A DNA stretch of 64,000 nt from Candidatus Omnitrophota bacterium. GTDB lineage: Bacteria; Omnitrophota; Gorgyraeia; Zapsychrales; Aceulaceae. Under the pieces are notes generated by a model. It was given only the letters and a program-made list of their open reading frames with translations. It searched no databases and was not told the DNA's origin. The stretch is taken from contig JAKQPK010000050.1 of the NCBI GenBank assembly GCA_029564765.1, positions 210,977-274,976 of the forward strand, read 5' to 3'. Both the position numbers and the translations under genes were made by a program. This document shows positions 8,576-39,197 of this stretch, piece after piece (position 1 is the stretch's first letter; every line of letters begins with the position of its first letter).

Positions 8576-11500
8576 CTATCCAGATGCTCTCACGACCTGC
8601 GCGCTATCTATCTGTGGCGTTTCAAATCCTAAGATCAAGGGAAGGTTATGCGCTGGGACCATCTGGATAATGATTGGCGCAAGGCTGTCAAAATGGATCC
8701 TTTCCATATCCTGGAATTGAACTGCCAAAGGAAGGCCCTGATCATCAGTTTTGATGTTCAGGTCTTGGTACAGGGTCGCGAAATCAATACCACCAGTAGG
8801 CGATAGATTATCCGCTCTTTTTTTCTGGAATTGCTTTTCTGCCTCAGCATAAGCCTCAGCATAACCATTCGCGAAAAGGGTCTGAGCTGTTTCATAAAGA
8901 TCAGCTAACGTTACCGAAAAGCCAAAAACAGACTCGATGATCTGCGTGGCATCTTCACCTTTGTACTGCCGTGCCATCACAGCATCTAAAACTACTCGCT
9001 GCCTTCCATCTTCACCCGCTTTAAAACCAGCACTATACAACCCTAAGCGGCTTCCCGCAAAACTAGATGAACCCATCAAAGCCACTAAGCTTTCAACAAT
9101 TTGCTCTTTCACAGTAGAGGAAGCGACTCCGCCTTGATCAGGTATCAAATTTCCAGCAACAGGAACAATTTTTCCTGTTAAAGGATGAACATAGAAAACA
9201 AGCTCAGTATCTTTATTCTGTGGAGGCAGACCTCTTGCCTGATGAGCAAGATCGCCAATATAACTTTCCAAAGAAGTGTCAACATAAAAAGGAATACCTG
9301 CCTTTTTCGCGGCTGTAGCCAAGATCATGACAGGACGTATCAGTTGATATTTTTGATCTTTTTCAGTGATATCATTGCCATTAATATTATTTCTCTCAAG
9401 CGCCATCAAATCGGAGGTAAATCGCAACGGATTCAAAAGAGATATCTCAGAAATATTGGCTTGCGCGTTTAGGATTTCATTAATCTCATAAAGATTAGCA
9501 GCAACTTCAACATCCACAGAAAGAGGAATATTAAGCCCGATCTCGCTCATAAGGCTTTTTACCTGATCGATCTCTTTAAAACTTCTCACAACCCTTAGCT
9601 GCAACACAATGCCTTTCTGGCCATTTACATCATCGACCAAGCGCTTGATAGCAGAAAGTTGTGCCCTTAAAAAATCTCGATCATTGCTTAAAGATTTAAC
9701 AAGGCCATGGACCCCATATTCCGGGTTGGCTTCACTTGGTTCATATAGCTCACCAAAAAGCAATTCTCGATATTCATTCGAGAAAAGAGCGTCCGTTGTA
9801 ATGATAAGCCGCTTTCCTTCCGTCTTTGCCTGAGAGAAAGATTTTCCAAGCGCCTCCAGAAGTCCACGCTCGTAAAACTTCATTCCGATCCCAGGTTCAT
9901 CAAGGCGCTCAACATATCCTTGATCACGCATAGAACGACGGATCTCCGTATACACTTTCCTCTCCTCGGCAGATAATGGCTGGTTTTTGAGAACCCTGGG
10001 AAGAAGGATTTCATCGTAGGACTTCAAGGCCTTATAATGAAATCCTAAAGTTAGACCAAAATCCGTCCCTATCTTGAATTGAGAATCCTCAAAAAGCTTC
10101 ACATCCGCAACGGCCTGTGGATCGATCTCAAAATCAAATCCGATCGCTTGCTGGGCTTCCGCAGGGATCTCAACGTCCTGACGGGCAAGGTTTTCCACGC
10201 CAAGCTTGATCGATTCTGGCGTCATGGAAACAGCTTCGTAACCTTCTTGCGCAAGAATCACTCCATAATTTTCCTGCCCCTTAACAGATGGCGCATTACC
10301 GCAAAAAGCATTCTTAATTTTGTTAACCGAATTGCGGAAGATCGCGTTAAATTTTTTCGTGATCTTTGGCATGCGACCATTCCAGCGCAAAATAGAAAGA
10401 CTATAATCCGTAACTACTTCTTTTAAGGACGCATTGCTCGTATTTCGATCCACTCTGGCCAATGTTTGCAAACCGTCATTGCCGCCAGTCGAGGTAAAAA
10501 AGTCAACGCTCCCAGCCTTTTTCCCTGAGCGCTGCTCAAAGATCGTGACTGCCGCCAAAAAATCCTCAATGTTAATCGAATTGGTAGGAAGCTCTGTCAT
10601 GATACCTACCTTAATATTGTCATCGATCAAGCCTTCTTCATCAAGGATCTCCAAAAATTTGACAACATCTATGGGCCTTCTGACAACAGGCGCGAAAATC
10701 CCAAACTTTGCTTTTTTTGTGTCAATGGCCTTTTTGATCGCTTCAAGCTGCCAGCGCAACGTCTGAGGATTCTTGAACATTAGATCCAACCCTCGAAAAC
10801 CTTTCATGGGATTTGCTTCACGATTAATGTACTCTTCCGCGCCATAAACATTCTGATATTCATCGCTTTTGCGGTCATCGAGTCGAATATAGTGACGTTT
10901 ATCCAAAAGCTTAACGATATCTGAAACGATCTGGGCGTCAGATCCATCCCTTATGCCACCTTCGGCGGCTTGTGCCAACTCGCTGAAAATGCTCTCAAGC
11001 TCTCGCAATGGAAAAATTTCACCGATGCCCTGCCGATAATAATTTTTAACAATATCTAACACCTTAACGCGAAGCTCGGCGTCCACAATGGTCTGAGCAT
11101 GTATCAAAACCCGCTTTAAAGGTGGGACTGTTGTAATGGATTTTGTCAATATAGATTCTGAAAGGACAGAAATATAAAAATCTTCAGCAGAATTATACCC
11201 TTCGATCGCCTTCTCAAGAAAGGAGATCTTTTCAGAATCACTAACGCGATCGAGGACCGGACCTTCATGCGGTTGCCGTTTTTCTTTCTTGACCATATTA
11301 TCATACGCCAGAAGAAGATCAGGATAGATGCCGATATCGTTTGTCAGCGTCAGCTCTTGACGATCAAGTCCTATGCCGTAAAAATCGATCATTAAGCGCA
11401 GAGGTGCTACTTTCAGGGCAGATGGCGGTGTGGCCGCGAAAACACCCACTCTTGCTTTGGTGCGCGGAAGGTCGATCGGACGAAAATCCTTGCCTTCAAC

Positions 11501-14500
11501 CTGCAAAACATAATCAGTGCCTAATAATATTTTTCCGCGGTTGGCGTCAATGGTCACCTTTACTCCATTAGGCAAAGCGTCCTGCAACTCTTCAAATGTC
11601 GCGTTAGAAACACCAGTGATCGCGACCAACCCATATTCTGAGGCAACGATCATCGTGTGCGAATTAGGCCCACCCTTAAGAGCCAAAATGCCCTTTGCCG
11701 CGATCATCGCCGAATTCATGTCAGGATCGCTTTGTTCAGCGAACATGATCTTTCCGATCGTCTGTGCCAGCGTGTCCGGTCTCTTGTCTAAGACCCAAAA
11801 GACCTGGCCTTGCGCGACCCCGCCTGTCTTGGCGATAAAATTAAAAGGCAAAACCTTTCCCTGGGCTTGTGCTTGCTGGAACGATTTATCCGTAACAAGG
11901 ATCTGTTTCATGAAGATCTTATGCGGATCACGGCGCGACCAAACCGTTTCGGGTCTGGCTTGAGTGCTGACGATCATCCAATCATATCGCGGAAAACCGC
12001 GCTCATCTAAAAGGGCTTTACCATTCTCATCCTTTAGCGTGATCATGTTCCCCTGAGCATCCCTTTTGATACGCAAAGCCCCCTCGAGATCAACGTAACC
12101 ACCGTAAAATTCATGCAAAGACCTAAAATAATCTGCGATCTTCCTTATAACCTCTTTGTCCGTGATCGAAAATTCTTGCTTGACGTCATCAGGGATCTCG
12201 ACTTCGATCTTACCCAACCCATCAGGTGTTTCAACGATCATGTGTGATCGTAAACCTCTTTTTCTGTTGAGTGGCTCGCCATCATACATCATGAAGAACT
12301 GACTTCCGGTCTCGCGTCCAGAAACGAGCATCTCTCCTTGCCCTTCTGTAGCCGATAGCGTCATTACAGGGAAACCTGTTTCGCGATCGACCGAAAAACC
12401 AATAAAACTTATCCCAGATAAAAACATTTCCTGGAATAACGTGCTGATCTCCACATGCTCATCAAAAGTAGGTAAACCAAAATCAAAACGATAATCAACA
12501 GCGCGCTTATTGAACAATGACGCTTGATTGAAGATCCAATTAGTAATGATAAAATCAAGCCCTTCAGGATCCTTTTTGGTTGCAAATGGCGTCACAAAGA
12601 TATATGTGTCCTGACGGCCAGCGAACGACGCGGCCTCGCTGTCTTCACCGACAGCTGAAGAACGGATCGCCAAAACAAGCTTATGAAGCGGGATACCGAT
12701 CCTCTGGGCAAGCTTTCGAAGATTACTTTTCATCTCTTCTTCGACAGCTCGGGGAACGATCATGGCTCGCCCGCCAATCAACAACTTACCAGAGATCATT
12801 GCTGTGATCTTTTCGTATTCAAGCTGTTTTCCCTGCAGCTGCTCCTCAAGCTGGGAGATCTTTTTGTTGATATCTACCTGATCTTCTTGCCCTTTTTTCT
12901 GGATCTCCAGCTCGGCGATCTCTTGAGCCAACTCTGTTTTCTTTTCCTTGATCAGCCGAACTTCTCGATCAAGATGATCACCCTGGGCTTTAAAATAATC
13001 TCTCAAGTTTTCATATGATCCGCTCTGTAGATCATCCAAAATAGACCTCATGACCGACAAAGTATCCTGGATCTGAGAAAAAACGCCCTCTCCTTTTTTT
13101 GTTTCAACAGCGACCCGCAAAAGAGAAAGATCTTTTGTGAGCTGATCGACCTCTTCTTCTGAAAGGCTTTGGCCAAGCGCAAGCTTCGGATGATCATCGC
13201 GATAGCGTATGATCTGCTTGATCAAGCGATCAAGGTGGGCCACGTACGCCTTCGTTGAATTACTGACAAAAAGATTTTGAAATGTTTCCCCGGCAGAAGC
13301 AAAATTAGGAAGCGTCACGATATCAGGGATGAACCCCATTTCTCCTGTATGTGCTGTCTTGCCTCCAAAGCCAACCTCATCCTGACGCTCAGCTTCGATA
13401 TCCCACACCGTAATACGGTCCTTAAAAGCGGGATCCTTGGTATATTCTTTGTGCAAGCTATAAACAAGGTTCTTCTGATCGCTTGCTTTCTGAGCTTCAT
13501 CTGCTCCAACGATCAGTTTTGTATTCGGATCAAGCTTCGCCTTGATATTCGCGATGGGATCCTCGATAGACTCCTCAGAAACCCTAACAATATTAGAGTG
13601 CTGCCGGTAAAACCTATCCAGAAGTTCTTGGGCCTTTTGTTCAGAGATCTTGCCGTATATCAAAAACTCATCGGTGAGCTTTTCCACAAGAACACGCTTA
13701 TCAAGTATCTTTCCTCGATGCAGCATATCCGAAACAAAAAGAATAATATCTGAATCGTTCAAGAAGTAAGGATCAAAAGCGCCTTCAAGCGTATCATTAC
13801 GAATGACCTTGTTCTTGATCTGATACATTGCCTTCACATCGTCCAATCGCGAGCCTTGCGGGATCAAAAGACTTTTCTTGTTGGCTCCGATAAGGATCTC
13901 CAGGTCCTTGATGCTGATATCACGCAAAACATCTTGCTGCATGATCTGAGCAAGCAAGCCAGCGATAAAGGACATCGTGATCTTCTTGCTTCCGGTCTGA
14001 AAAAGATAGTCTAAAAACTGGGTATTGATCGTGACCTTATTATTGGCAACATCAACATCCGCATACTCACCTTTTGTTTGTCCAACAAAGAATTGGACTT
14101 GGTCCATATAGCTGGCTAACAAACGCAATATTTTGTATTCTTGTTTTTCTCCGCCATAAAAAGAAAAAAAGTTCTTGGTCAAAGGGTACAGTTTGTCGTA
14201 TTTGCCAAAAAACATTTGTCCAGGCTCAAGATCACGATGGCCTGGAAATTTTTCTTTTTTGGAAAGAGCGATCGCTGAGGACATAGGAGCCGACACAAAG
14301 CCCTCATCCTTCGGAAGCTGGATGAAATCAACCGCCAGATCAGCATCATCAACGATACTCAGCTTCCAACTGACATCATGTATGCCCTTGGAAGTGCTGA
14401 CAAGCAAACCGTCGTAAGAGATCTTTACTTCTGAAATGTATTTTTTCAGGTTCTGATCAAGTCTTTGATAAGGATGCCATCCGTAATCTGTCCCTGGAGC

Positions 14501-16129
14501 ATGGCCAAGCATGGCCAAAACTTCTTTAGGTTTTTGCCCGATGGCCTGATGGATAAGGTCAAGATTGCTCTCCAAAGATCTTTTTGCGTCTAAATACGGG
14601 ATCTTAATCGCTGAGCTCAGCGATGATGATGTGCGTGTTTTTCGCTGGTAAACATAGACGATCCAACGGTCTGTGGGATTCTTTAAAGCCTTGTAGTACC
14701 CTCGAGGGGCGATCGCAACATAGCGTTGATCACCTGCGATCATGATGACAGGACTTTTAGGTGCGTCACCGGTATCAACATCAACACTCTTGTGAGCATA
14801 CTTTTCAACAAGGTAATTCTTAACTTGCTCTTGATTCCATATGTTGGCACCGTCCTCAAGAATGAAATGCCAACTCTTGCGCTCCCACTGCCCAGAAGAC
14901 CTCTCAAGAGGCGAGCTATTGCTTTTTTTATCTGTAGATAGGGCTGCCGTAATGCGCGTATTATCCCCACCGCGGACAATATTGTTCTGCTGCTGCGGGC
15001 TTGTGGATGTGATCTCCTCAAGATTCTCTGCGATCTTCGTCAAGACATCAATGCCGCCGGAGAAATATTTTCTTGGAATATGTCTTTTGGTGTGATCATC
15101 ATATTCCGCGCGAATAAAATTGTAGACGCCCTGTTTATAGGCTAAAAGATAGGACTCGTAGATCTTTTGTTTGATCTCTTTATCCTCAAGATCAATACCG
15201 GCGACCTTGGATCGATCGACGTAGATCTTTCCTAAAAGACTCTCTTTCAAGTTCTTCTTAAACCACATGCCTAAGACAAGAGCGTTGTAGGCTTGACGCA
15301 AAGACGCAAAATTCTTTCCCGTATTGACCTCTTTTTCAAGCTCTGGGATAACGATGTCGCGGATAATGGAAGAAGCGATTGAGCTTGTTGAGCTTGTTGC
15401 GTTTGTTGGGTTGGACGAACTCAAAGAACCCGATGAACTCAATAAACTCGATGAACCGTTCGAACGCGACAGCGCGAGGTAATCTTCTTCCAACATGACC
15501 TTTAACGATGCCTCAGCAACAAATGCCATATTGCCATGACGATAAACAACAACTTTATCCGGCATGATCCATACCTTATTAAAAGTGTCTACCGGGATCT
15601 CAGTGGTCTGGTATATTGCGTAAGCCTTTTGGTAAACCTTGTCCCAGAATTTCTTTCCAAGATCGGTCTGCGGGTGGATCAAGGAGGCGGTCAGTTGTTT
15701 TAAAATGTAATCTTGCGCTAGCAAGTCTCGCCCCAGATCGGTCTGCGCTAAGGCATCAGGAATGATGCGGTCCTGTTCGAAGGGAGAAAGGTTGACCCAC
15801 AGATCTTTCTCGGGGATCGTTAGCGATGCCAAGAAATACTTGATCAGCTTCTCTGATTCCTGCTTTAACGCATCACCTGCAAGATCCTCATCGCCATCAT
15901 TGATGATAAAATCGAACTTAAAAGGATTGTCGGGATAAACTTCGAGGCCTACCATCATCGCAGGATAAAATACCGGCGTTGTCGAAAGAATGGCGCCGGG
16001 CTGCGGCAATCCTAAAGCTTGGGCAAATCCAGGTGAAGGGACAATAAGATTGATCAAAAAACAGATCGAAACAAAACAACGAACAACTCGAGAGGATGCC
16101 GTTGTGGCATTCTTTTTGAAGGTGAGCAT
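8576..16129 (-). CDS. Giant secreted multidomain protein (2517 aa): signal peptide, shared N-module, PEP-synthase/PPDK-type phosphotransferase core, shared C-module
   Basis: Signal peptide MLTFKKNATTASSRVVRCFVSICFLINLIVPSPGFAQA. The N-module (about aa 40-400) is about 50% identical to that of the 33540-39197 protein. Coiled coil ELAQEIAELEIQKKGQEDQ... PPDK_N/PEPS ATP-grasp signature AIRSSAVGEDSEAASFAGRQDTY. Swivel phospho-His signature GGPNSHTMIVASEYGLVAITGV. PEP-utilizer TIM-barrel-like VDFFTSTGGNDGLQT. Ser-rich linkers. The C-terminal ~60 aa are shared with the paralog. Confidence 0.85.
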   Translation of the reverse strand: MLTFKKNATTASSRVVRCFVSICFLINLIVPSPGFAQALGLPQPGAILSTTPVFYPAMMVGLEVYPDNPFKFDFIINDGDEDLAGDALKQESEKLIKYFLASLTIPEKDLWVNLSPFEQDRIIPDALAQTDLGRDLLAQDYILKQLTASLIHPQTDLGKKFWDKVYQKAYAIYQTTEIPVDTFNKVWIMPDKVVVYRHGNMAFVAEASLKVMLEEDYLALSRSNGSSSLLSSSGSLSSSNPTNATSSTSSIASSIIRDIVIPELEKEVNTGKNFASLRQAYNALVLGMWFKKNLKESLLGKIYVDRSKVAGIDLEDKEIKQKIYESYLLAYKQGVYNFIRAEYDDHTKRHIPRKYFSGGIDVLTKIAENLEEITSTSPQQQNNIVRGGDNTRITAALSTDKKSNSSPLERSSGQWERKSWHFILEDGANIWNQEQVKNYLVEKYAHKSVDVDTGDAPKSPVIMIAGDQRYVAIAPRGYYKALKNPTDRWIVYVYQRKTRTSSSLSSAIKIPYLDAKRSLESNLDLIHQAIGQKPKEVLAMLGHAPGTDYGWHPYQRLDQNLKKYISEVKISYDGLLVSTSKGIHDVSWKLSIVDDADLAVDFIQLPKDEGFVSAPMSSAIALSKKEKFPGHRDLEPGQMFFGKYDKLYPLTKNFFSFYGGEKQEYKILRLLASYMDQVQFFVGQTKGEYADVDVANNKVTINTQFLDYLFQTGSKKITMSFIAGLLAQIMQQDVLRDISIKDLEILIGANKKSLLIPQGSRLDDVKAMYQIKNKVIRNDTLEGAFDPYFLNDSDIILFVSDMLHRGKILDKRVLVEKLTDEFLIYGKISEQKAQELLDRFYRQHSNIVRVSEESIEDPIANIKAKLDPNTKLIVGADEAQKASDQKNLVYSLHKEYTKDPAFKDRITVWDIEAERQDEVGFGGKTAHTGEMGFIPDIVTLPNFASAGETFQNLFVSNSTKAYVAHLDRLIKQIIRYRDDHPKLALGQSLSEEEVDQLTKDLSLLRVAVETKKGEGVFSQIQDTLSVMRSILDDLQSGSYENLRDYFKAQGDHLDREVRLIKEKKTELAQEIAELEIQKKGQEDQVDINKKISQLEEQLQGKQLEYEKITAMISGKLLIGGRAMIVPRAVEEEMKSNLRKLAQRIGIPLHKLVLAIRSSAVGEDSEAASFAGRQDTYIFVTPFATKKDPEGLDFIITNWIFNQASLFNKRAVDYRFDFGLPTFDEHVEISTLFQEMFLSGISFIGFSVDRETGFPVMTLSATEGQGEMLVSGRETGSQFFMMYDGEPLNRKRGLRSHMIVETPDGLGKIEVEIPDDVKQEFSITDKEVIRKIADYFRSLHEFYGGYVDLEGALRIKRDAQGNMITLKDENGKALLDERGFPRYDWMIVSTQARPETVWSRRDPHKIFMKQILVTDKSFQQAQAQGKVLPFNFIAKTGGVAQGQVFWVLDKRPDTLAQTIGKIMFAEQSDPDMNSAMIAAKGILALKGGPNSHTMIVASEYGLVAITGVSNATFEELQDALPNGVKVTIDANRGKILLGTDYVLQVEGKDFRPIDLPRTKARVGVFAATPPSALKVAPLRLMIDFYGIGLDRQELTLTNDIGIYPDLLLAYDNMVKKEKRQPHEGPVLDRVSDSEKISFLEKAIEGYNSAEDFYISVLSESILTKSITTVPPLKRVLIHAQTIVDAELRVKVLDIVKNYYRQGIGEIFPLRELESIFSELAQAAEGGIRDGSDAQIVSDIVKLLDKRHYIRLDDRKSDEYQNVYGAEEYINREANPMKGFRGLDLMFKNPQTLRWQLEAIKKAIDTKKAKFGIFAPVVRRPIDVVKFLEILDEEGLIDDNIKVGIMTELPTNSINIEDFLAAVTIFEQRSGKKAGSVDFFTSTGGNDGLQTLARVDRNTSNASLKEVVTDYSLSILRWNGRMPKITKKFNAIFRNSVNKIKNAFCGNAPSVKGQENYGVILAQEGYEAVSMTPESIKLGVENLARQDVEIPAEAQQAIGFDFEIDPQAVADVKLFEDSQFKIGTDFGLTLGFHYKALKSYDEILLPRVLKNQPLSAEERKVYTEIRRSMRDQGYVERLDEPGIGMKFYERGLLEALGKSFSQAKTEGKRLIITTDALFSNEYRELLFGELYEPSEANPEYGVHGLVKSLSNDRDFLRAQLSAIKRLVDDVNGQKGIVLQLRVVRSFKEIDQVKSLMSEIGLNIPLSVDVEVAANLYEINEILNAQANISEISLLNPLRFTSDLMALERNNINGNDITEKDQKYQLIRPVMILATAAKKAGIPFYVDTSLESYIGDLAHQARGLPPQNKDTELVFYVHPLTGKIVPVAGNLIPDQGGVASSTVKEQIVESLVALMGSSSFAGSRLGLYSAGFKAGEDGRQRVVLDAVMARQYKGEDATQIIESVFGFSVTLADLYETAQTLFANGYAEAYAEAEKQFQKKRADNLSPTGGIDFATLYQDLNIKTDDQGLPLAVQFQDMERIHFDSLAPIIIQMVPAHNLPLILGFETPQIDSAQVVRASG

Positions 16130-16224
16130 GGGGTAACTCTCCGTTTCTCCGTGGCGTGAGAAAATAAAAATAAGGCTTTATGTTTTGACTTTATGGAAAC
16201 GTTTTCTGCGCTTGACTTTGTAAA

Positions 16225-16253
16225 AGGATAGCATTTGAAAGGACGTGTGACAA
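16225..16253 (-). promoter_or_regulatory. Candidate sigma70 promoter for giant gene 1
   Basis: Minus strand TTGTCA (16253-16248), 17-nt spacer, TATCCT (16230-16225), about 95 nt upstream of the ATG. The leader holds two AAAGTCAA direct repeats. Confidence 0.3.
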
Positions 16254-16376
16254 GGGTGTGAATTCTTTACAAAGAAGGCATAAATTATTATTTTTCAATA
16301 AGTTATGCCTCTATGAATAAAAAATCTTCAATTTCGTTGAGAATTAAGCCGACAACAACACAAATGATCGTGTAAA

Positions 16377-16826
16377 CTATCTTTTCGTCGAAAGCATGTA
16401 GCCGATAACTTTTTCGCTGACTTTATTGTCTTTTAAATATTGAACGGTCTGTTCATCCATAACAAAAACAGAACCTGTTTTCTGGATCTGATCAATGATG
16501 ACATCATCCGGCGTGCCTTCCCTGCTCATGTCAACAACCTTTAAGATCGTAAGCTGATGAGAAGCGGACTCTGTTGACGGTGTCTCAGGGTTTGATTGGT
16601 CATCCATGCCGCTGCCGATCAGTCCTCCAGCGCCAGCACCGACCGCCCCGCCGATCAGCGCGCCCTCAACGCCATGGCCTGTCTGATGCCCAACAACACC
16701 ACCTGCGACAGCCCCTAGAACACCGCCGATACCGATACCTTTTTTGGTATTAGAGCCCATAGATTCGCAGCCTATCAAAGCAAAGCTTGCTAAAACAGCA
16801 ACAGTAACAATAATTTTTGATCTCAT
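16377..16826 (-). CDS. Glycine-zipper lipoprotein (17-kDa-antigen / YMGG-like)
   Basis: Lipobox LIGC after the signal peptide. GIGIGGVLGAVAGGVVG...GALIGGAVGAGAGGLIG glycine zipper. Confidence 0.65.
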   Translation of the reverse strand: MRSKIIVTVAVLASFALIGCESMGSNTKKGIGIGGVLGAVAGGVVGHQTGHGVEGALIGGAVGAGAGGLIGSGMDDQSNPETPSTESASHQLTILKVVDMSREGTPDDVIIDQIQKTGSVFVMDEQTVQYLKDNKVSEKVIGYMLSTKR

Positions 16827-16866
16827 TTCTCTCTCCTTGTTAAGATTAAATGTTGAACGATTGCTA

Positions 16867-17553: not shown

Positions 17554-17581
17554 GTCCTTTGATAGGATCCTGAGCAGGTCT

Positions 17582-30861: not shown

Positions 30862-30867
30862 TGCGAT

Positions 30868-31281
30868 TTATCTTTTTTTTGACGAACAATCCTTGCAGAC
30901 CCCGTAAAAATACCCTTGAAAATTCTCAATGGCATGGCCTTGCACGCTTTTACGATCGAGCACTGGGCATCGCGGCATCTCAACATCTAAAACCTTTCGA
31001 CATAGACGGCATAAAAAGTGATGATGATCTTCGTCTGTCCTCTCGTACAGCGATCGGCTAAAATCGATCTTGATCTCATTGAGCAGATGCTTGCTTGTGA
31101 AATTCTCCAAGATCGCGTAAACCGTTCCCAAAGAGATCGCAGGAACCTGCGCCTTCACTTTCTGGAAGATCTCTTCAGCGCTCAAATGGCACTTGCCATT
31201 ATTGAAAACACCATATACCGCCAGCCGTTGCGGCGTGACCTTAACTTTGTGCTGACGTAAAATTTGCTCAGATCGCTTCAT
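30868..31281 (-). CDS. Fur-family metalloregulator, probably PerR-type
   Basis: Fur DNA-binding helix plus HHHFLCRLCRK...CKDC metal sites. Embedded among peroxide/oxygen defence genes. Confidence 0.75.
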   Translation of the reverse strand: MKRSEQILRQHKVKVTPQRLAVYGVFNNGKCHLSAEEIFQKVKAQVPAISLGTVYAILENFTSKHLLNEIKIDFSRSLYERTDEDHHHFLCRLCRKVLDVEMPRCPVLDRKSVQGHAIENFQGYFYGVCKDCSSKKR

Positions 31282-31757
31282 TATTTTTCTTTCACAGGAT
31301 CCACGTGAGGCGGCGCAAGATCAACGACGTTCTCAACATTGACCTTGATTAAATATTTTGGATGTAAAGGAAGATGGGCTTCGTGGTGTTTTCTGGATTT
31401 AAACCCTGCCTGAACACTGCGTGCGATACGCTTAGAAATACGATGAACGACCCTTTTCTCCCACTCTTCAAAGATCTTTTCATGCAACTGGTCGCGGGTG
31501 ATGATCTCGGCTTGCCCTTGAAGCGTGTACCCTTTGAACAAATGATCGTCAAATGCCGTAATGCTGATCATGGGGTTGCGCTTAAGATTGCGAAATGTCC
31601 GATAAAGATAGAGGTCGATCAAGAAAAGATTATCTGGGCTCTCAGCGCTGATGATCCCCTTGATCGAACAATGGATACACCCTTTTTCATCCAGGGTTGA
31701 GACGATAACACTGTCTTGGCTTTCAAAGAAATTGATAATTTCTTTATCGATCCGCAT
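31281..31757 (-). CDS. Pyridoxamine-5'-phosphate-oxidase-like split-barrel flavin-binding protein
   Basis: 158 aa. Weak similarity pattern only (N-terminal VIVSTLDEKG...ISIT). Start overlaps the PerR stop. Confidence 0.4.
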   Translation of the reverse strand: MRIDKEIINFFESQDSVIVSTLDEKGCIHCSIKGIISAESPDNLFLIDLYLYRTFRNLKRNPMISITAFDDHLFKGYTLQGQAEIITRDQLHEKIFEEWEKRVVHRISKRIARSVQAGFKSRKHHEAHLPLHPKYLIKVNVENVVDLAPPHVDPVKEK

Positions 31758-31761
31758 GTCT

Positions 31762-32961
31762 CTATTGTCCGATCAATGTCTTGGCAGTAGTTACTGCGTA
31801 AGCGAGGCCCTCTAGATCACTTGCGCTTGGAATAAACTGAACATATTTTCCTTGGCCGACAAGCTCAAAGCCAGCATCCTGAATAGATGTTTCCAATTCT
31901 TTAAAACCAACCATCGACCACCCATAAGAACCAAAAGTCATCGCATATTTATTTCTGCATTTCAGGCCTTTTAAGTACATCAACAGCCCAGCCATTGTTG
32001 GAAGCATGCGATTATTCAAGATCGGCGTTCCAAAAATAACAAGCTTTGATGTTAAAATATCTGTCACGATATCCGACATATGCCCCGCTTGCAGGCTGAC
32101 AAGCTTAACAAAGATCCCTTCTCTATCAAAAATTTCTTGAAGCTTCTCTGCCATTTGCTTGGTCGAATTCCACATCGTGTCATAAACGATCAACACTTTT
32201 TTATCCGCCTGGTAATTAGCCCATTTCTCGTACAAATGGACGATCTTAGCGATATCTTCTTTCCGCCTCCAGATCAATCCGTGCGAAGGGCAGATCATGT
32301 CGATCACCATCGGCTTGAGCGCTTCTAAAGCCTTGAGCACTTGGTTTCCATATGGCATCACGATATTAGCGTAATACTTGGCCGCATCCTCAAAAATGAC
32401 ATCCGCGCCAGCCTCATCCGCATAACGCTCGACCGATGCGCGATGCTGGCCAAAGGCGTCATTAGGAAAAAGGATCTTGTCCTGCGGCGAATACGTTGCC
32501 ATAGAATCCGGCCAATGGACCATCGGCATAAGGAAGAATTTCAACGTTCGCTTACCAATGTTGAGCTCATCACCGGTGTTGACAACTTTAAAATTCCAGT
32601 CTTTTTCGCTTCGCGTACCACTAGGCAGGAAATGTTTCCTTAGCCCCTCGCATCCTTTGGGCGAGCAAACAACTTGCGCTTGAGGGCAAAACTTCAGCAA
32701 GCTGTCGATGGACCCAGAATGGTCCATTTCGGTATGATTAGAAATGATGTATTGAATCTTATCAGGGTCGATCACTTCCTTGATGCGAGAGATCATCTCA
32801 TCAAAGCCGTAATACTTGACCGTATCGATCAACGTCGGCTTTTCATCAAGGATCAAATAAGAGTTGTATGTAGAGCCTGAGGGCGTGTCATAGCCGTGAA
32901 AATTACGCAGGTCCCAATCAATGTATCCGGTCCAATAAATATCAGGAGAGATAGAGTGCAT
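31762..32961 (-). CDS. Flavodiiron protein (rubredoxin:oxygen/NO oxidoreductase, FprA/Roo type)
   Basis: Metallo-beta-lactamase di-iron motif NHTEMDHSGS plus a C-terminal flavodoxin domain (KVLIVYDTMWNSTKQMAE); 399 aa. Confidence 0.85.
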   Translation of the reverse strand: MHSISPDIYWTGYIDWDLRNFHGYDTPSGSTYNSYLILDEKPTLIDTVKYYGFDEMISRIKEVIDPDKIQYIISNHTEMDHSGSIDSLLKFCPQAQVVCSPKGCEGLRKHFLPSGTRSEKDWNFKVVNTGDELNIGKRTLKFFLMPMVHWPDSMATYSPQDKILFPNDAFGQHRASVERYADEAGADVIFEDAAKYYANIVMPYGNQVLKALEALKPMVIDMICPSHGLIWRRKEDIAKIVHLYEKWANYQADKKVLIVYDTMWNSTKQMAEKLQEIFDREGIFVKLVSLQAGHMSDIVTDILTSKLVIFGTPILNNRMLPTMAGLLMYLKGLKCRNKYAMTFGSYGWSMVGFKELETSIQDAGFELVGQGKYVQFIPSASDLEGLAYAVTTAKTLIGQ

Positions 32962-32988
32962 AATTAAATGAAAGGGTTAAAGAGTTAA

Positions 32989-33160
32989 GAGTATTTAGTC
33001 GATAGTATTTAGTAAAAACAAAAATAAAGAATCTGAAACGAAAAAGATTTATTCTACTCTTCTAAAGATTTTCTCAATTCGCAATTCTTTTATGCTTGTC
33101 GTTTTACGCTTTATTTCTTAACTTTTTTCACTATATACTAAATACTATCGGCTAAATACT
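32989..33160. repeat. 24-bp inverted repeat (1 mismatch) flanking a 123-bp AT-rich spacer between the rubredoxin and flavodiiron genes
   Basis: Left arm AGTATTTAGTCGATAGTATTTAGT (32990-33013). Right arm ACTAAATACTATCGGCTAAATACT (33137-33160), the reverse complement with one mismatch. Each arm carries AGTATTTAG twice with a 14-bp period. Confidence 0.6.
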
Positions 33161-33163
33161 TTT

Positions 33164-33328
33164 TTATCCTTCTACTGCCTCAAAATCCGCCTTTGACACC
33201 CCGCACTCTGGGCACACCCAAGAATCAGGAATAGCTTCAAATGCTGTGCCGGGTGCAATATTGCCGTCTGGATCCCCTTTTTCCGGGTCATAGATGTAGC
33301 CGCAAACAGTGCATTTATATTTTTTCAT
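33164..33328 (-). CDS. Rubredoxin
   Basis: [22 protein letters not shown]...WVCPECG, two CxxCG knuckles. ATG at 33328 has AAAGGAGG 7 nt upstream; the ORF track starts 8 codons earlier. Confidence 0.9.
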
Positions 33329-33539
33329 AAACAGCCTCCTTTGCGTGAGCACACAACTTACGCGACTGAAAGGAGCGTCAAGTTGTCCGTGCGAATTTAT
33401 CCCGGTGAAGCTGCGACCTAGCAGCTGAATCGGGAAACATTAAATAGATTTTAATATTACCACAGAACGTTATACAAATATCAATATTTTCTAATCAGGA
33501 ATAGTTATTATATAGGAATATCCTTAGATGTCAAGAAAG

Positions 33540-36500
33540 TTATCGAGCAAGGCTCAGCCGTGGTTGGCTTTCTTGGCGAACACCGAGCAAAAGCGGAAGA
33601 TTTGTAACCGGCGCGATATTGATAATAACAGGATAGAGCCCATCAATCTCAATATTCTCAAAATTCTCAAGGTCAAATTGTATAGGGCTTGCGCCTCCCT
33701 GACGTTCAAGGTCGAAATGAGCAGGATTAAGATCGATACCGCCGACTTCGTTTGGCTTCACTTGAGCTTGTTCGTATCCAGTCCTAACATCCTTAAGAGA
33801 ATCAATAAGATCAGAATAAGAATCATACCCTAAAGCCCAAGCCAAAGCCTGTTTCTTGCTGCTTGAGAATTCCTCATTTTTAAATTCTAAGTAATTCTGG
33901 ATCACATCCCAAACAGCTTTCTTAGACTCAATGGTTAAGTACCGAAGTTGGACATCTTGTGTGATCGTCGCTTCACCTGCTGATCGATCGATCACGATTC
34001 CGCTGTCTTCGAATGTCTTTTTTGCAAAAATCAAATTAATACCACCAAAACCATTCAAAAGACGAACACGCGTCATCTGCCCCTCTCCGCCGGGATTCAC
34101 GAATATTCTTTGTGCCTGAGAACCGATCATTTTCCCGTCGCTCTCAAAAATCATCTTATACAAATTCTCTAAAGTGGTTACTGTGCCGTAAGCCTCTTTT
34201 ATGGCTGAATAATTTTTTGCAAGCCAGCCTTCAACATCAAAAAATGATCGACCATGTTCTTGTGCGATAGCCTGCAACGCAACATCTACTTCAATTCCTG
34301 GTCTAAGACGATCCATTCGTTCAACACTCGATGTAATTCTCAGCTTATCAGCCGCATCATTAACTGGTATAAAATCACGATATTTTTCAAGCCATTCCTT
34401 TGTTTTTTGGATAAAAGCCAAGGCTTCCCTTGCACCCATACCAGAAATAAGCCCGTTTTGAATCTTTTGAGAAATCGCATCCCACTGCTCCTTTATTTCG
34501 CCTTGAGATACAGCTGACGATACCGGACTCCCGTCAGGATTAAAAAGCTCTAGCTGTTCGCCTGCCTTCCTGAAGAATACTTTTTCTCCAGCCGCGAGCT
34601 TATTTAAAAGCGGCTGTGAGACCGTATAAACGCCATCGCCAGCAAGCTGCATCTTTACTTTGATGCTCTGCTGAAGGGCACGATACGCCCCTTGAACGAT
34701 ATCGTTGGTCAGTGTATTCTCGGGAAACACCCACATCTCAAGACTACTCGAAAAGAAATCCGCAGTCGTGATAACAAATTTTCCATCAGAGGCCTTGCGC
34801 GCTTGATATTTAAGACCCAAGGTTCTTGTAATATTTTCGTTGATCCCCTGAGCTGCTTTAAAATGCTCCATAATATTGCCGTTGGGCTCTTGATAGCGCT
34901 CGCTAAAGAAGACAACGATGTTGCTATTGTTTGTTGTGTCAACAACAGCCTTGAATTTCCAGATGCCGTCCTTGTCCAGTGTGGCTATCTTTTCGATCGT
35001 CTTGTCATTTAGCTCTAACGCCCTTCCATTTTCAAGCAAGACATCCTCTGTGAGATCGCGCGTTGAACGAGAAATGCGATCATTGAAATAAAGCGCATGC
35101 AGCGTTGGTATAAACTGCTTCTTTTCCTGAATAACCTTTTGGACTTCCTGATATATCCTAGCCTTATTCTTTTCAGGATATTGACGATCAAGCGCTAAGA
35201 TAATATTTTCCGCTGTTGGACGGGAAACCCTGATGCGTCCACCTTCTGTGATGATAAAATTTCGGAAAGCTGGAACATTCTCATAATATTCTTCAATCGT
35301 AAAGATGCCCTTCCAGAAAAAATCTTCTGGCAAATCCAGCTTGCTCCTGCTCTTAAACTGCAAAAGCTGTGTGTCAATAACATAAGCCCCATCGATCTCA
35401 ATAATTTCATGAGTAATGCCTAACTCTTCTTCGCGAATCCTGTCTGCATTGGGTGGAATGTATATCGTTTTTGGCTCAAAACCATAGTTGAGGCGCAAAT
35501 GGCTGCTGTTTTCCCAGATGCCCATGATCTCGTTGGTGGCTAAGGCGCACTGATTAGAATGCTTCGGATCGTACTTCTTGATGATCGACTCCGCCAAATT
35601 CTTTAATTCGGCTGGGATGCTCGAGGAAGAAGCCGAAACATACAGATCTCCGACACCATAATCAACAACCCCACCATCAATAGAAATGCCTAAAATATCT
35701 CGTTGGCTGACTTTCTTAAAACCGCTCAATCCTTCAAAATACGCCTGATCGACCTTGGCTGGAGCATAATAAATCTTGCCATCTGATCTCATCTTTTTTC
35801 TTAGATTTCCACTATTGTGCCATTTCTCAAAAAAGTTCGCCACCTGCGGCGAAGGGTTGATCACGGACAAATAGTCGATCGCGCCATCAGGAATATGGTA
35901 AAGAAGATCGGCAAACTCCCCTTTAAGGATCACAAGATTCTCTTTTTCTTCTTTAAGACCATCTAATTTTTTTTGGTCCCATAGTTCTCGGTAATAATAC
36001 CCCGACTCTGCAAATGAATCAAAACCAATAACACCTATATCCCTATTTTGACCAGCCACAGCCAAAGGAAATCGTCCTTGGCCTGTTCCAGCATCTACAT
36101 AGATCTGGCCATGCTTCTGCAGGATCGAAACAGCCTTTGCGACCGCCTCCTGAGAATTCCCTTGCCTGACAAGATATTGTTCAAAATTCCTGATTTCTGA
36201 TGAAATAGCTGAAGAGACATCGCTATCAGCGTAACGTTTCTTTCCATCCTGGGACAGGACGACCATTCTCGTTCCATCTGCAGGTCGGATAGGAAGTAGA
36301 GAGTCGAAAGTCGCGTTGATCAGCATGTAATCTTCTTCGGGATAAAACGCTTTAATATTTTTCATAAAAAGATTAAATTTGTTTTGCCGCTCTTCTTGTG
36401 TCATGCGGCTATAAGCAACCCACTCGAGGATGTTGGAGACATGGACCACAGAAGCTTGTCCTGAAATTTGCGCTTTTTGTAAGAATTCTCTTATCATTTC

Positions 36501-39197
36501 TTCGCTTGACTCGCCAAACCAATCGAGTGTTAAGAAATGGATCTTGCCTGTTTGGACCATATTTTTTATTTTTAAGAAATTTTCCTCGCTTCCCAACCAG
36601 CTAAAAATATCTTGGGATTCTTCTATGGCTTTTCTAACGACAACCGACCAATTCAACATTCCACTTTTATTTTGAAAGACCCCATCCCAAAAGTTCTTCG
36701 CGCGCTCATTGCTCTCGAGGTCCGGTCTTACCTCGATCATTTTCTGCCAGATCTCGTTTTTACGCGCATAGCTGTTTGCGACGCCCGAAAGACCCAAGGA
36801 AACATCTTCTTGTGGCAAATATCCCTGTAAGAGATTTAAATACTCTTGTCGATTTCCTGAAATAGAAATGAGAGCGGCTTTGATGGGCAAAAATGCCTCT
36901 GTTACAAAAGGATTAAAATCAACCAAAACACCATCACTAAAATCACCGTTGGCAATCCAAGAAAAATCCTGCCCCGTGCCAACATAAGCACCCTGAGCAC
37001 TTTTAACTTCTTGATATGTCGGACCCCACCCCTCATTCGAACTTGACCATTGCAAAGCTGAACGCATGTCAAGTAAAGCCTGATCTTCAGCTCCCGAACG
37101 TTGTCCGCTTGGAGAAATTGATAGGCTTGGTATATTCCTAACGGAAACCATCTTCTCGTCTGTTGGAACGTAACTGACAGACTTAAAGGTATAACTTCTT
37201 CGCCCATTATCAATTGGCAAGGTGATCGATCTTTCGCTACCCGGTTTCATGTTCAAGGTGATCTCTTGATTGCCGCGACGCACTGCAGAAACGAATAAGA
37301 GACGCTCTCCAGTTTCAGCACCATTAACGATAAGATTCTTTACTCTCAGATTAATATCGATCCCTGCTTTCCGCATCTGTTCAAGGATCACAATATAATC
37401 TGTCTCATTGCGCAACCCCTGTGCGTCATTAAAAAACAAGAGCTGGCTGACAAAGGTTCCTCCATCGTTTAGCTGATGAAAAAGATTGAGCCACGCGGCA
37501 AGCGGATCAGAAAGATACTGCAAAACAAAAAAAGAAGTGATCAGGTCCATCTTGACGGGCTTTCCGTCTTTGTCATATATTCTTTTTGTCGTTATGTCGT
37601 TTTCAGGGCCTTTAAAAAAATTAACCTTGGGGGCCATCAATTCATACATCTCTTTGCCATCTGGCCCATATTCATTCAAGAACCCTTCGAGCGCTTGAGG
37701 ACCCATATCCTTAATTTGAGATTCTTTTTTGTCGATCCCATAAGCATCGATCAAGCTGCCATACGAATACTTAATATTGATCAACGACATCCCCAGCCCG
37801 CATCCGGCATCTAGGATCTTCGCCGGGACTTTTGTTCTGCTAGCCTTTGCGGCTAGGTTCTCAACGATCTTTCCTAAGGGATTTTCTCCTTGAACATTCT
37901 GGATCTCCACCCCAAAAAGATTAAGAATACCATCGTAGCGATAATAATCACGGTAATTAGTGTGGTTGCTCTCATCGGACAATTGGGAAGTTTTTTGTAA
38001 TGGCGATGCGGAGGAGCTCTGAAGCCCACTTGTGACAACTCGCAAAGATGATGAGCCGAGACTGCCAAGGCCATCTGTTTTTTCAATGATGCCGCTACCG
38101 TCAAAATGCGTTTTCATTTCAATGCCGCCGGAAAAATATTTTCTCGGGATCGCCTTGCGAATATAAGGGTCGAATTCAACCTTCATGATATCGCAAACAC
38201 CTTTTTTATAGGCAGCCAGATACTGTGCGTAGATCTTCTGGTGAACATCCTTGTCGTCAACATCAACACCCTTGACCTTGCTTTGATCACTGTACTTTTT
38301 ATTGATGATCGAATCCTTGAGCGCCTGCTTAAACCACGCCGCCAGAATAAAAGAGCTGTAAACTTGGCGCAACACAGCAAAATTCTTACCCTCATTGACC
38401 TCTTTCTCAAGCTCCGGCAACAACACTTCCCGAGCGATCTGAGAAGAAAGGGAGTTTTTAGCCGTTAGTATTTGGTCGTTAGTATTTTGTAAAGGCTTTG
38501 CACTAGATAGGCTATCGACTTGTTGCTTTGCCTGTAAAGCAACATAATCCTCCTCCAGCATGACCTTCAGCTTCGATTCGATAATAAAAGCTTTATCATG
38601 ATTCTCGTAGACCTTCGCCTTGGCAGGAACGATCCATACCTTATTGAACGTATTCGCCGGAATATTAGTCGTCCCAAAAAGCTCGTAGGATCTTTTATAA
38701 ACCTTATCCCAAAATACCTTTCCTGTCTTGCTCTCAGGATGCGTTAATGATGCCGTTATCTGCTTTAAAAGATAGTCCTGAGCTAAAAGGTCTCGCCCCA
38801 TTTCAGTTTCGCCAAAATCACCAGCAATAATGCGTTCTTTTTCGTAAGGGCTGAGATTAACCCATAAATTCTTCTCAGGAACGGTCAAAGACGCCAAAAA
38901 ATACCGAACAAGCTTCTGGGCCTCAATATTAAAGGCCTCGCCTTCCAGGCCCGAATCTCCCACATCCACGATAAAATCGAATTGAAAAGGGTTGTCGGGA
39001 TAGGCCCTGATCCCGCGAAGCATCGCAGGCATAAAGCTGTTGCTTAACAAAACAGGTGTTCCAGGCGCTGGCAAGCCTAAAAGCCCTTGGGCTAAGGCCT
39101 GAGGAGGAAAGACCGTTGTTAGCAAGAACACGCCTGCGACAAGCCAAGACAGGCTCTTTAATATACGCTTTTTTATTCGGCTATTTATCGTTTTCAT
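33540..39197 (-). CDS. Giant secreted multidomain protein (1885 aa): signal peptide, shared N-module, two class I SAM-methyltransferase domains, shared C-module
   Basis: Signal peptide MKTINSRIKKRILKSLSWLVAGVFLLTTVFPPQALA. N-module paralogous to the 8576-16129 protein (LTVPEKNLWVNLSPYEKERII, GRDLLAQDYLLKQITASLTHP, IPRKYFSGGIE). MTase motif I twice (KILDAGCGLGMSL, IYVDAGTGQGRF). C-terminal GGIDL...PVIINIAPVTNLPLLLGV matches the paralog's GGIDF...PIIIQMVPAHNLPLILGF. Confidence 0.85.
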   Translation of the reverse strand: MKTINSRIKKRILKSLSWLVAGVFLLTTVFPPQALAQGLLGLPAPGTPVLLSNSFMPAMLRGIRAYPDNPFQFDFIVDVGDSGLEGEAFNIEAQKLVRYFLASLTVPEKNLWVNLSPYEKERIIAGDFGETEMGRDLLAQDYLLKQITASLTHPESKTGKVFWDKVYKRSYELFGTTNIPANTFNKVWIVPAKAKVYENHDKAFIIESKLKVMLEEDYVALQAKQQVDSLSSAKPLQNTNDQILTAKNSLSSQIAREVLLPELEKEVNEGKNFAVLRQVYSSFILAAWFKQALKDSIINKKYSDQSKVKGVDVDDKDVHQKIYAQYLAAYKKGVCDIMKVEFDPYIRKAIPRKYFSGGIEMKTHFDGSGIIEKTDGLGSLGSSSLRVVTSGLQSSSASPLQKTSQLSDESNHTNYRDYYRYDGILNLFGVEIQNVQGENPLGKIVENLAAKASRTKVPAKILDAGCGLGMSLINIKYSYGSLIDAYGIDKKESQIKDMGPQALEGFLNEYGPDGKEMYELMAPKVNFFKGPENDITTKRIYDKDGKPVKMDLITSFFVLQYLSDPLAAWLNLFHQLNDGGTFVSQLLFFNDAQGLRNETDYIVILEQMRKAGIDINLRVKNLIVNGAETGERLLFVSAVRRGNQEITLNMKPGSERSITLPIDNGRRSYTFKSVSYVPTDEKMVSVRNIPSLSISPSGQRSGAEDQALLDMRSALQWSSSNEGWGPTYQEVKSAQGAYVGTGQDFSWIANGDFSDGVLVDFNPFVTEAFLPIKAALISISGNRQEYLNLLQGYLPQEDVSLGLSGVANSYARKNEIWQKMIEVRPDLESNERAKNFWDGVFQNKSGMLNWSVVVRKAIEESQDIFSWLGSEENFLKIKNMVQTGKIHFLTLDWFGESSEEMIREFLQKAQISGQASVVHVSNILEWVAYSRMTQEERQNKFNLFMKNIKAFYPEEDYMLINATFDSLLPIRPADGTRMVVLSQDGKKRYADSDVSSAISSEIRNFEQYLVRQGNSQEAVAKAVSILQKHGQIYVDAGTGQGRFPLAVAGQNRDIGVIGFDSFAESGYYYRELWDQKKLDGLKEEKENLVILKGEFADLLYHIPDGAIDYLSVINPSPQVANFFEKWHNSGNLRKKMRSDGKIYYAPAKVDQAYFEGLSGFKKVSQRDILGISIDGGVVDYGVGDLYVSASSSSIPAELKNLAESIIKKYDPKHSNQCALATNEIMGIWENSSHLRLNYGFEPKTIYIPPNADRIREEELGITHEIIEIDGAYVIDTQLLQFKSRSKLDLPEDFFWKGIFTIEEYYENVPAFRNFIITEGGRIRVSRPTAENIILALDRQYPEKNKARIYQEVQKVIQEKKQFIPTLHALYFNDRISRSTRDLTEDVLLENGRALELNDKTIEKIATLDKDGIWKFKAVVDTTNNSNIVVFFSERYQEPNGNIMEHFKAAQGINENITRTLGLKYQARKASDGKFVITTADFFSSSLEMWVFPENTLTNDIVQGAYRALQQSIKVKMQLAGDGVYTVSQPLLNKLAAGEKVFFRKAGEQLELFNPDGSPVSSAVSQGEIKEQWDAISQKIQNGLISGMGAREALAFIQKTKEWLEKYRDFIPVNDAADKLRITSSVERMDRLRPGIEVDVALQAIAQEHGRSFFDVEGWLAKNYSAIKEAYGTVTTLENLYKMIFESDGKMIGSQAQRIFVNPGGEGQMTRVRLLNGFGGINLIFAKKTFEDSGIVIDRSAGEATITQDVQLRYLTIESKKAVWDVIQNYLEFKNEEFSSSKKQALAWALGYDSYSDLIDSLKDVRTGYEQAQVKPNEVGGIDLNPAHFDLERQGGASPIQFDLENFENIEIDGLYPVIINIAPVTNLPLLLGVRQESQPRLSLAR

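Follow-up and report, generated by a model that had tools for sequence, protein, structure and literature searches.

Why would two very large proteins of one bacterium share both of their ends, including an apparent signal for export, while enclosing unrelated enzymes of a kind that depends on adenosine triphosphate (ATP) or S-adenosylmethionine (SAM)? The question is raised by a 64,000-nt stretch of DNA from a Candidatus Omnitrophota bacterium, hereafter the window, in which two minus-strand open reading frames (ORFs) were named protein A and protein B. According to the ORF list and its translations, protein A (8576..16129) has 2517 amino acids (aa) and carries a cargo of the phosphoenolpyruvate (PEP) synthase type, and protein B (33540..39197) has 1885 aa and includes methyltransferase domains among its cargo. 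We found that both are members of a large family in which a frame of two terminal modules is conserved, whereas the cargo between them is swapped in the manner of a cassette and turns over much more quickly than the frame diverges.

A conserved frame around exchangeable cores

By BLASTP, the two proteins are 48% identical over 401 aa near their N-termini (aa 14-412 in A, 14-404 in B; E 2e-112) and 41% identical over 59 aa at the other end (aa 2445-2501 in A, 1818-1872 in B; E 4e-7). Given that no further high-scoring segment pair with E < 0.5 was returned between the two proteins, their cores are unrelated. The first-pass annotation of this DNA had described two paralogues that share N- and C-terminal modules and have unrelated middles, and these alignments bear out both parts of that description; the motifs that it listed (DNPFxFDFI, WVNLSP, GRDLLAQDYxLKQ, KVWIxP, IPRKYFSGGI, GGID... 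and PxIIxxxPxxNLPLxLG) were likewise located in both proteins. A search of the window with tblastn found no third copy of either module, leaving A and B as the only two. Protein A was also found as an identical 2517-aa gene call on 13 independent public contigs, including JGI 3300009669 and SRR4236650; A is thus not an assembly artefact, and chance or a gene-calling artefact was rejected on the same ground.

Both proteins are built to one plan, here described along the minus strand. In A, a signal peptide (16022..16129, aa 1-36) with a basic n-region, the h-region VVRCFVSICFLINLIV and the c-region PGFA↓QA, in which the arrow marks the predicted cleavage site, precedes the N-module (15050..16021, aa 37-360), which runs from LGLPQPG to IPRKYFSGG and is 48% identical to that of B. 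The variable cargo (8798..15049, aa 361-2444), without similarity to B, leads to the C-module (8627..8797, aa 2445-2501; TGGIDFATL...LAPIIIQMVPAHNLPLILG; 41% identical to that of B) and to a variable tail (8579..8626, aa 2502-2517). The signal peptide of B (39090..39197, aa 1-36) consists of KKRILK, the h-region SLSWLVAGVFLLTTVF and the c-region QALA↓QG. It is followed by the N-module (38121..39089, aa 37-359), delimited by BLASTP against A and by the family alignment, a variable cargo (33747..38120, aa 360-1817) with two methyltransferase-like domains and DUF7790, the C-module (33582..33746, aa 1818-1872; VGGIDLNPAHFDLE...LYPVIINIAPVTNLPLLLG), delimited by BLASTP, family alignment and profile, and a 13-aa tail (33543..33581) ending in RLSLAR.

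The annotation had left the question of whether a third member with a different cargo exists, and further members turned out to exist by the thousand. A word-indexed homology search with the C-modules of A and B returned 0 and 5 matches, respectively, and an exhaustive profile search was needed, which recovered 5164 representative proteins at E<=1e-3 and 1873 at E<=1e-10. This module of ~60 aa has the consensus GGIDLNP..L.LQIKRDgnGvPLP...Q.....I.GF.PVIINI.PV.NLPLLLG and always occupies the extreme C-terminus, within the last ~100 residues, in proteins of up to 4969 aa. Searches with the N-module gave at least 1183 proteins at E<=1e-3, nearly all labelled Omnitrophota; the best 120 of these were 50-63% identical, save for one 100% self-match, and the closest relatives are annotated as Candidatus Omnitrophota. 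At least 598 N-module loci were counted in a scan of one genome per species, and several genomes hold multiple copies. The 80 loci that were retrieved all appear to derive from Omnitrophota metagenome-assembled genomes, many of them deposited as 'uncultured Planctomycetales'. The family therefore appears to be specific to Omnitrophota, and it is apparently unnamed.

The two modules occur as a pair. When ORFs were translated around the retrieved loci, nearly all complete N-module ORFs ended in a C-module, and among the C-module matches of at least 700 aa (n=74), 56 contained the N-motif, nearly all of these with a signal peptide. Of the remaining 18, at least two start within the N-module and are hence 5'-truncated, and the rest may be too.

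Cores and frames were compared across the family. Clustering by reciprocal-coverage BLASTP distributed 92 cores over 90 clusters, whereas the N-modules had a median pairwise identity of 56% (5-95% range, 49-64%). The identities of N- and C-modules correlate (Spearman 0.37); the frame is conserved, with its two halves diverging together. Even among 47 pairs whose N-modules are 70-99% identical, the cores were related over half their length in just 2, and 38 had no core similarity at all. Two members, P0138 and P0143, have N-modules that are 92% identical and C-modules that are 82% identical, with unrelated cores, and several similar pairs were found.

Replacement in place is visible at a locus of Ca. 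Aceula lacicola (JAVCCC010000043.1, 88-11859; L001) that is syntenic with positions 5632-16838 of the window. Conservation there, at roughly 42-70% amino-acid identity, extends to the glycine-zipper gene upstream, the N-module, the final ~100 aa, the C-module, the PilZ and Memo/AMMECR1 genes and the next gene. In their midst, ~1900 aa of cargo (window 9113-14939) lack tblastx similarity, which resumes ~100 aa ahead of the C-module, at 56% identity. The Aceula protein carries phosphoglycerate kinase (PGK) and an HMGL-like domain in place of the PEP synthase of A, and a 97-aa stretch in common with it was the sole match of the A core against the 92 family cores. The first-pass annotation read A and B as a conserved frame with variable cargo that recalls polymorphic effectors, and this reading is strengthened by the replacement of cargo within a conserved frame, including at a syntenic locus.

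Family members range from 438 aa, with no cargo, to at least 4969 aa, the cargo alone spanning 0 to more than 4500 aa, and 'giant' is a relative label. The 438-aa protein, P0109, is the frame alone (N-module, 15 aa and C-module) and lies directly upstream of, and in tandem with, a 1110-aa member (ENA ERZ18640406 scaffold_519; L083 2704-7425), with a BrnT-like toxin gene nearby. Tandem copies, comprising two or three family genes, occur at 17 of the 80 loci. From the PxIIxIxP motif to the C-terminus there are 7-63 aa (median 36) across the family, much of which is a variable, often acidic tail. After this acidic tail, about one quarter of the members end in hydrophobic-S-x-L-N-COOH (EVSALN, KISLLN, QLSARN and similar), an ending that might act as another terminal signal, recognised, for instance, by a PDZ domain or a tail-specific protease. 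The possibility that cargo is inserted within a duplicated GGID, suggested by the end of the N-module, FSGGI(D), and the start of the C-module, GGID, was dropped because FSGG is not followed specifically by I-D in the 254 members compared.

Cargo, leader and fold of the modules

The unit of A that resembles PEP synthase/pyruvate, water dikinase (10202..12877, minus strand, aa ~1085-1976) comprises ATP-grasp PPDK_N, mobile phospho-His and PEP-binding domains. Pfam matches were obtained for PPDK_N (aa 1123-1366, 2.9e-32), the mobile His domain (1459-1532, 2.7e-13) and PEP-utilizers_C (1740-1976, 9.6e-23); the NCBIfam PEP synthase model matched with E 1e-93, below its equivalog cutoff, and the solved PEP synthase PDB 2ols with E 1.3e-41. 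The phosphocarrier His is kept in A, where GGPNSHTMIVASEYG aligns to GGRTCHAAIIARELG of PDB 2ols, and reading of the sequence located the ATP-grasp SSAxxED motif and the CG[NQ]APS motif. The cargo of B, also on the minus strand, includes a SAM-methyltransferase domain (37440-37865, aa 445-586; Pfam Methyltransf_23, 1.5e-9), DUF7790 (36318-37019, aa 727-960; Pfam 9.1e-12) and a second methyltransferase-like domain (35844-36128, aa ~1024-1118), for which the partial matches to NpmA and Methyltransf_4 fall below the cutoff. SAM motif I can be read in B as ILDAGCGLG and YVDAGTGQG. The claim that both cargos depend on ATP or SAM is in line with the Pfam assignments, a PEP-synthase-type unit in A and SAM-methyltransferase-like domains in B.

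To characterize the cargo of the family, Pfam censuses were made on 49 cores, 35 full-length proteins, 3 large cores and 10 random cores, these samples overlapping, and recognisable domains were present in ~25-40% of the members. Signalling domains (Response_reg (REC), HATPase_c and PP2C) were found along with metabolic ones, including PGK in four members, enolase in two, phosphoglucomutase (PGM) in two, UDP-glucose pyrophosphorylase (UDPGP) and RmlD/epimerase, and with PEP synthase/PPDK cargo (PPDK_N/PEP-utilisers) in at least three. Several methyltransferase families, SNF2 with ResIII, and ankyrin, HEAT and NHL repeats complete the inventory. The PGK and enolase cargos match full-length profiles (E 1e-102 and 1e-86), and the PGK cargos of four members are 36-44% identical to one another, which suggests old or repeatedly acquired payloads. 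None of the families listed in the censuses was a typical extracellular glycoside hydrolase, protease or nuclease. Judged by these domain matches, the recognisable cargo represents cytoplasm-type chemistry that depends on ATP, SAM or phosphoryl transfer. Consecutive glycolytic enzymes also occur within single family proteins, as in L043 (5327-12379, PGK then enolase) and at L038, L007 and L022.

How such enzymes are oriented was read by rules: Kyte-Doolittle averages over 19-mers with a threshold of 1.6, counts of K/R, a basic n-region before an h-region of 10-20 aa, and small residues at -3/-1. The h-regions score 1.88 in A and 1.86 in B and are the only segment of either protein that reaches 1.6; no internal transmembrane (TM) segment was found outside the leader at that threshold, and the Pro-rich hydrophobic stretch of the C-module gives 1.45 and 1.52 in A and B and at most 1.98 in relatives. 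Basic residues of the leader are K5, K6, R14 and R17 in A and R7, K9-R11 and K14 in B. On average across the family, 3.0 K/R precede the h-region and 0.15 lie in the 20 residues behind it, a bias that predicts an N-in/C-out orientation. The cleavage context small-x-A↓Q lies at A36↓Q37 in both A (G-F-A↓Q) and B (A-L-A↓Q), and the A↓Q site is kept in 224 of 265 family members.

The same A↓Q context was seen in a LolA-like periplasmic protein of the window (41832-42611, minus strand; TTPAWA↓QTVEE) and in a leader-bearing 424-aa ORF (5311-6585, minus strand; DTSSA↓QVYSK). In Bacteroidota, a signal-peptidase site that leaves an N-terminal Gln is known as the 'Q-rule', and the residues at +1 suggest a similar rule in this Omnitrophota genome. 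By charge and cleavage-site rules, the leader is thus predicted to be a genuine Sec signal for signal peptidase I, with the whole remainder of the protein exported; the Sec signal peptides of the first-pass annotation agree with the K/R bias, with the retention of A↓Q and with the identical site in the LolA-like protein. Considering that the topology consists of a leader with no internal TM segment, the 'overlooked TM helix' explanation for giant proteins does not fit here.

Neither module could be assigned to a named domain. Pfam gave no match to either at E<=0.1. NCBIfam gave nothing at E<=10 for the C-module (two window segments, five database fragments and two further family C-modules) and no credible match for the N-module, with only chance-level values of E 0.0012 and 0.48, and a PDB sequence profile search found no relative of the modules. 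The absence of Pfam, NCBIfam and PDB matches agrees with the annotation, which had recognised no named domain in them; they are not a known adhesin, S-layer or sorting domain. An AF2 model of the ~325-aa N-module, built from 62 sequences (predicted local distance difference test (pLDDT) score 78.5, predicted template modelling (pTM) score 0.70), is alpha/beta, with three beta-hairpins interleaved with seven helices. Foldseek found nothing significant for this model in PDB (best E 0.5, TM score <=0.16), nor did a search of BFVD (best E 0.12). A ClyA-type alpha-pore-forming toxin, which arose as a lead from fold searching, was rejected, as the model did not combine an elongated helical bundle and beta-tongue with a significant structural superposition.

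Invariant positions number 40 in the N-module alignment. Trp, Tyr, Asn, Gln, Asp, Glu and Arg are frequent among them, Cys and His are absent, and by their composition these residues look more like a glycan- or partner-binding surface than like a hydrolase. Variation within the module is confined to one disordered stretch of low complexity, rich in Ser/Thr, which is inserted between beta-hairpin 2 and helix 5 (A aa 222-252, window ~15370-15470; equivalent position in B). In the AlphaFold model of P0109 (pLDDT 73.6), only the GGIDL strand region of the C-module (~residues 367-382) is confident.

Possible roles of the frame

Omnitrophota are ultra-small bacteria with host-dependent, predatory or parasitic traits (PMC10066038). 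We give an even chance to the proposal that A, B and their relatives are Sec-exported proteins whose shared frame serves to sort, anchor or deliver polymorphic payloads directed at a host or prey. The whole polypeptide would leave through Sec and be cleaved by signal peptidase I at A↓Q, after which the constant N- and C-modules would serve a common post-Sec step, in which the protein could be sorted or anchored to the envelope or cell surface, or else passed on to an apparatus for secretion or contact. As the payload, the variable middle would work where ATP, SAM and glycolytic intermediates are available. Given that the bacterium's own periplasm lacks these, the payload would act in an attached host or prey cell, or at its breached surface, and we infer action inside another cell from this argument. 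The family would therefore function as a system of polymorphic effectors, or of payload display, whose frame is of a new kind.

Giant proteins of the same phylum have been described before. In the 'Archaeovorins', Omnitrophota giants of at least 30,000 aa, cytoplasm-type enzymes are predicted to lie outside the cell (West-Roberts et al. 2023, bioRxiv 10.1101/2023.11.21.568195), and a catalogue of long Omnitrophota proteins covers those of at least 10,000 aa (bioRxiv 10.64898/2026.06.07.730766). A more far-reaching idea, possible but on the unlikely side, is that a phylum-specific system, made of a novel N-domain and a C-terminal signal, routes whole cytoplasm-type enzymes out of the cell as 'outsourced metabolism' or a metabolic-hijack arsenal, of which the giants of 10-147 thousand aa (kaa) are the concatenated version. 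The enzymes would end up either in the cytoplasm of the host or prey to which the bacterium is attached or in an extracytoplasmic space that is energised; among those exported may be enzymes of glycolysis that form or consume ATP, kinases, methyltransferases and chromatin-type ATPases, as payloads exchangeable by cassette.

Several observations weigh against payload delivery by the frame. Across 80 loci, no neighbouring transporter, chaperone, protease or immunity gene is conserved, the neighbours being housekeeping genes, another family member downstream, or nothing. Outside the GGIDL strand, the C-module of P0109 has pLDDT <50, and AlphaFold did not dock it confidently to the N-module. Unlike in polymorphic toxins, the variable part is internal, with no C-terminal toxin and with the conserved C-module at the extreme C-terminus, and no immunity gene lies downstream at the loci examined here. 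Recognisable domains are absent from ~60-75% of the cores, meaning that the description of the cargo as cytoplasm-type rests on an annotated minority, and the PGK, enolase and PGM cargos could instead belong to the metabolism of the cell itself, which would suit a cytoplasmic location, or one in some unusual compartment, better than an effector role. Export, surface location and delivery are themselves steps that we infer from sequence.

The topology that suggests export would equally suit an extracytoplasmic metabolism of the bacterium's own, in which the exported proteins are tethered by the frame in the periplasm or surface coat and nothing enters another cell; metabolites from lysed or punctured prey would be processed there, for instance, with ATP or PEP made before uptake. 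Lower-glycolysis cargo does recur (PGK 4, enolase 2, PGM 2, PEP synthase/PPDK at least 3), West-Roberts et al. proposed an extracellular 'pre-processing of sugars' by the glycolytic domains of giant proteins (bioRxiv 10.1101/2023.11.21.568195), and ATP/ADP translocases occur in some Omnitrophota classes (Seymour et al., PMC10066038). However, no substrate outside the cell is obvious for the REC, HATPase_c, PP2C, SNF2/ResIII, ankyrin and methyltransferase cargos, a lone pathway enzyme would be of little use there, and no solute-uptake genes are linked to the family. We consider this alternative unlikely, and we are more sceptical still that the proteins stay inside, with the N-terminal segment as an uncleaved membrane tether, or in some other role, and the frame as a scaffold for cytoplasmic enzymes at the inner membrane or in an unrecognised intracellular compartment of this PVC-related phylum. 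Retention would explain why every recognisable cargo needs cytoplasmic cofactors, and 46% of long Omnitrophota proteins read as membrane-anchored with cytoplasmic domains (bioRxiv 10.64898/2026.06.07.730766), but the K/R ratio of 3.0 versus 0.15 predicts the opposite orientation, the very same small-x-A↓Q site occurs in bona fide periplasmic proteins of this genome, and neither A nor B has a second TM segment to return the chain to the cytoplasm.

Intact catalytic motifs are the main difficulty for a coat or adhesin family, in which the frame would polymerise or anchor into a surface layer ('velamen'), the middle would supply antigenic or adhesive diversity, and the enzyme-like domains would be co-opted as binding modules or pseudoenzymes. 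Protein A keeps the phospho-His motif in the 2ols alignment together with SSAxxED and CG[NQ]APS, SAM motif I is intact in B, and the PGK and enolase cargos match their profiles over the full length (E 1e-102 and 1e-86). Such a coat would accommodate the extreme diversity of the cargo and the lack of annotation in most cores, the HEAT, ankyrin and NHL repeats and the cargo-less, frame-only member; glycolytic enzymes also moonlight as adhesins in other bacteria. We nevertheless regard it as improbable.

Related systems and genomic setting

The Archaeovorins, as members of the same phylum, are the closest point of comparison. PPDK_N, methyltransferases, HATPase_c, PGM/PMM, REC, HEAT and glycolytic domains are common to both, the paradox of extracellular glycolysis has already been noted for this phylum, and pilZ directly follows A downstream, a position also reported for it at most giant genes. 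The family described here, however, spans 0.4-5 kaa as opposed to 10-147 kaa, and A and B have a leader only, whereas the giants have many TM helices. A T2SS-like locus (one resembling a type II secretion system) lies upstream of the giants and none is present in the window, and pilZ is absent downstream of B and of most members. According to West-Roberts et al., the N-terminal regions of the giants 'generally lack identifiable domains', in contrast to the conserved N/C frame found here. This frame is described in neither giant-protein paper, and no description of it was found in the literature.

In MARTX toxins of Vibrio and relatives, too, conserved N- and C-terminal regions flank an exchangeable central part. 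Their central effector domains act in the cytosol, and effector content differs between close strains via recombination. A and B, however, lack glycine-rich or RTX repeats and the autoprocessing cysteine protease domain (CPD), with no Pfam matches to RTX, HemolysinCabind or Peptidase_C80, and their frame is not repetitive and is unrelated in sequence. Instead of the C-terminal type I secretion system signal of MARTX, which lacks a leader, they have a Sec leader, no adjacent genes for an ATP-binding cassette (ABC) transporter, membrane fusion protein (MFP) or TolC, and a cargo of metabolic and signalling enzymes rather than known cytotoxic modules. Polymorphic toxins (Rhs, CDI/CdiA and MafB) likewise join a conserved trafficking part to a hypervariable payload and expand by duplication and cassette replacement, with tandem copies. 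The combination of a conserved N-part with recombining payloads that marks them is also found here, as only 2 of the 47 pairs have related cores and cargo is replaced at the syntenic locus; what differs, besides the points weighed above, is that Pfam detects no known trafficking domain and that the payloads are not nucleases, deaminases or pore-formers.

Bacteroidota proteins secreted by the type IX secretion system (T9SS) through a C-terminal domain (CTD) resemble the family in their Sec leader, diverse cargo, conserved signal at the extreme C-terminus and exposed N-terminal Gln. Unlike a CTD, a beta-sandwich of ~70-100 aa, the C-module is ~60 aa long, Pro-rich and hydrophobic with an acidic tail and matches no CTD model in NCBIfam or Pfam; an additional N-domain of 325 aa is obligatory, and the cargo is of cytoplasmic type rather than hydrolases or adhesins. 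TpsA exoproteins and LapA-type RTX adhesins share with the family a conserved N-terminal module near the leader, for secretion or retention, and a long variable passenger, but the TPS domain (Haemagg_act, PF05860) and a beta-helix are lacking here, the N-module model being alpha/beta with long helices, and neither TpsB/Omp85 nor ABC/MFP genes adjoin A or B.

The frame is best described as built on two previously unnamed modules, following the principle of 'conserved frame, polymorphic payload' with an unusual, metabolism-heavy cargo, and the family has the look of a new device by which these tiny bacteria, predatory or parasitic, export or deliver proteins. The phylum is ubiquitous; its members are ultra-small, have not been cultivated and are thought to be epibiotic predators or parasites. 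For the giant-protein puzzle, the family offers a tractable version, with expressible sizes, a leader without TM helices and a sharply defined frame, and with a hidden Markov model of the frame, paralogues could be counted, payloads mapped and co-occurring machinery sought. Should the frame act as a signal for sorting or delivery, it would provide a new secretion or effector-targeting signal along with thousands of candidate effectors; if nothing is delivered, enzymes dependent on ATP and SAM outside the cytoplasm would be unusual cell biology in themselves. In either case, the in situ replacement of cargo constitutes a natural system for the exchange of domain cassettes within a fixed protein frame.

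Genes flanking A and B were inspected for secretion systems, and none was found, nor do ABC/MFP/TolC or TpsB/Omp85/ShlB genes adjoin them. The most recurrent neighbours of the family are histidine kinases, Trp-biosynthesis genes, ACC and an ABC ATPase. Directly downstream of A, a PilZ-domain gene (8087..8458, minus strand, 123 aa; Pfam PilZ, 1.4e-14) also appears on the public contigs and has been kept at the Ca. Aceula locus syntenic with that of A (L001 9015-9383). PilZ was rejected as a general partner of the family, as it lies downstream only of A and its syntenic counterpart, and not of B.

The genes of the window are mostly on one strand and represent ordinary anaerobe housekeeping, such as pyruvate:ferredoxin oxidoreductase, NrdD/NrdG, rubrerythrin, ferritin, a flavodiiron protein, AsmA, MMPL with a LolA-like and an outer-membrane protein, and a bifurcating [FeFe]-hydrogenase with HydEFG maturases. 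The [FeFe]-hydrogenase module (45893-55979, minus strand) encodes HydE/HydG-like radical SAM proteins, HydF, a large subunit with an SSU domain, a 1045-aa fusion of NuoF-like and pyridine-nucleotide oxidoreductase parts and a NuoE-like subunit, and it is consistent with a fermentative, electron-bifurcating metabolism; a second NuoF-like gene lies on the opposite strand (60781-62577, plus strand). Upstream of B lies a small ORF (window ~39370-39565, minus strand; MKRIYRVMEEKKIGGVCAGLGEYFGLDPVFFRVGFVLITLF...) that by eye resembles a membrane protein with a PspC domain; a terminator made of a GC-rich hairpin and a T-run comes next, and then the promoter region of B.

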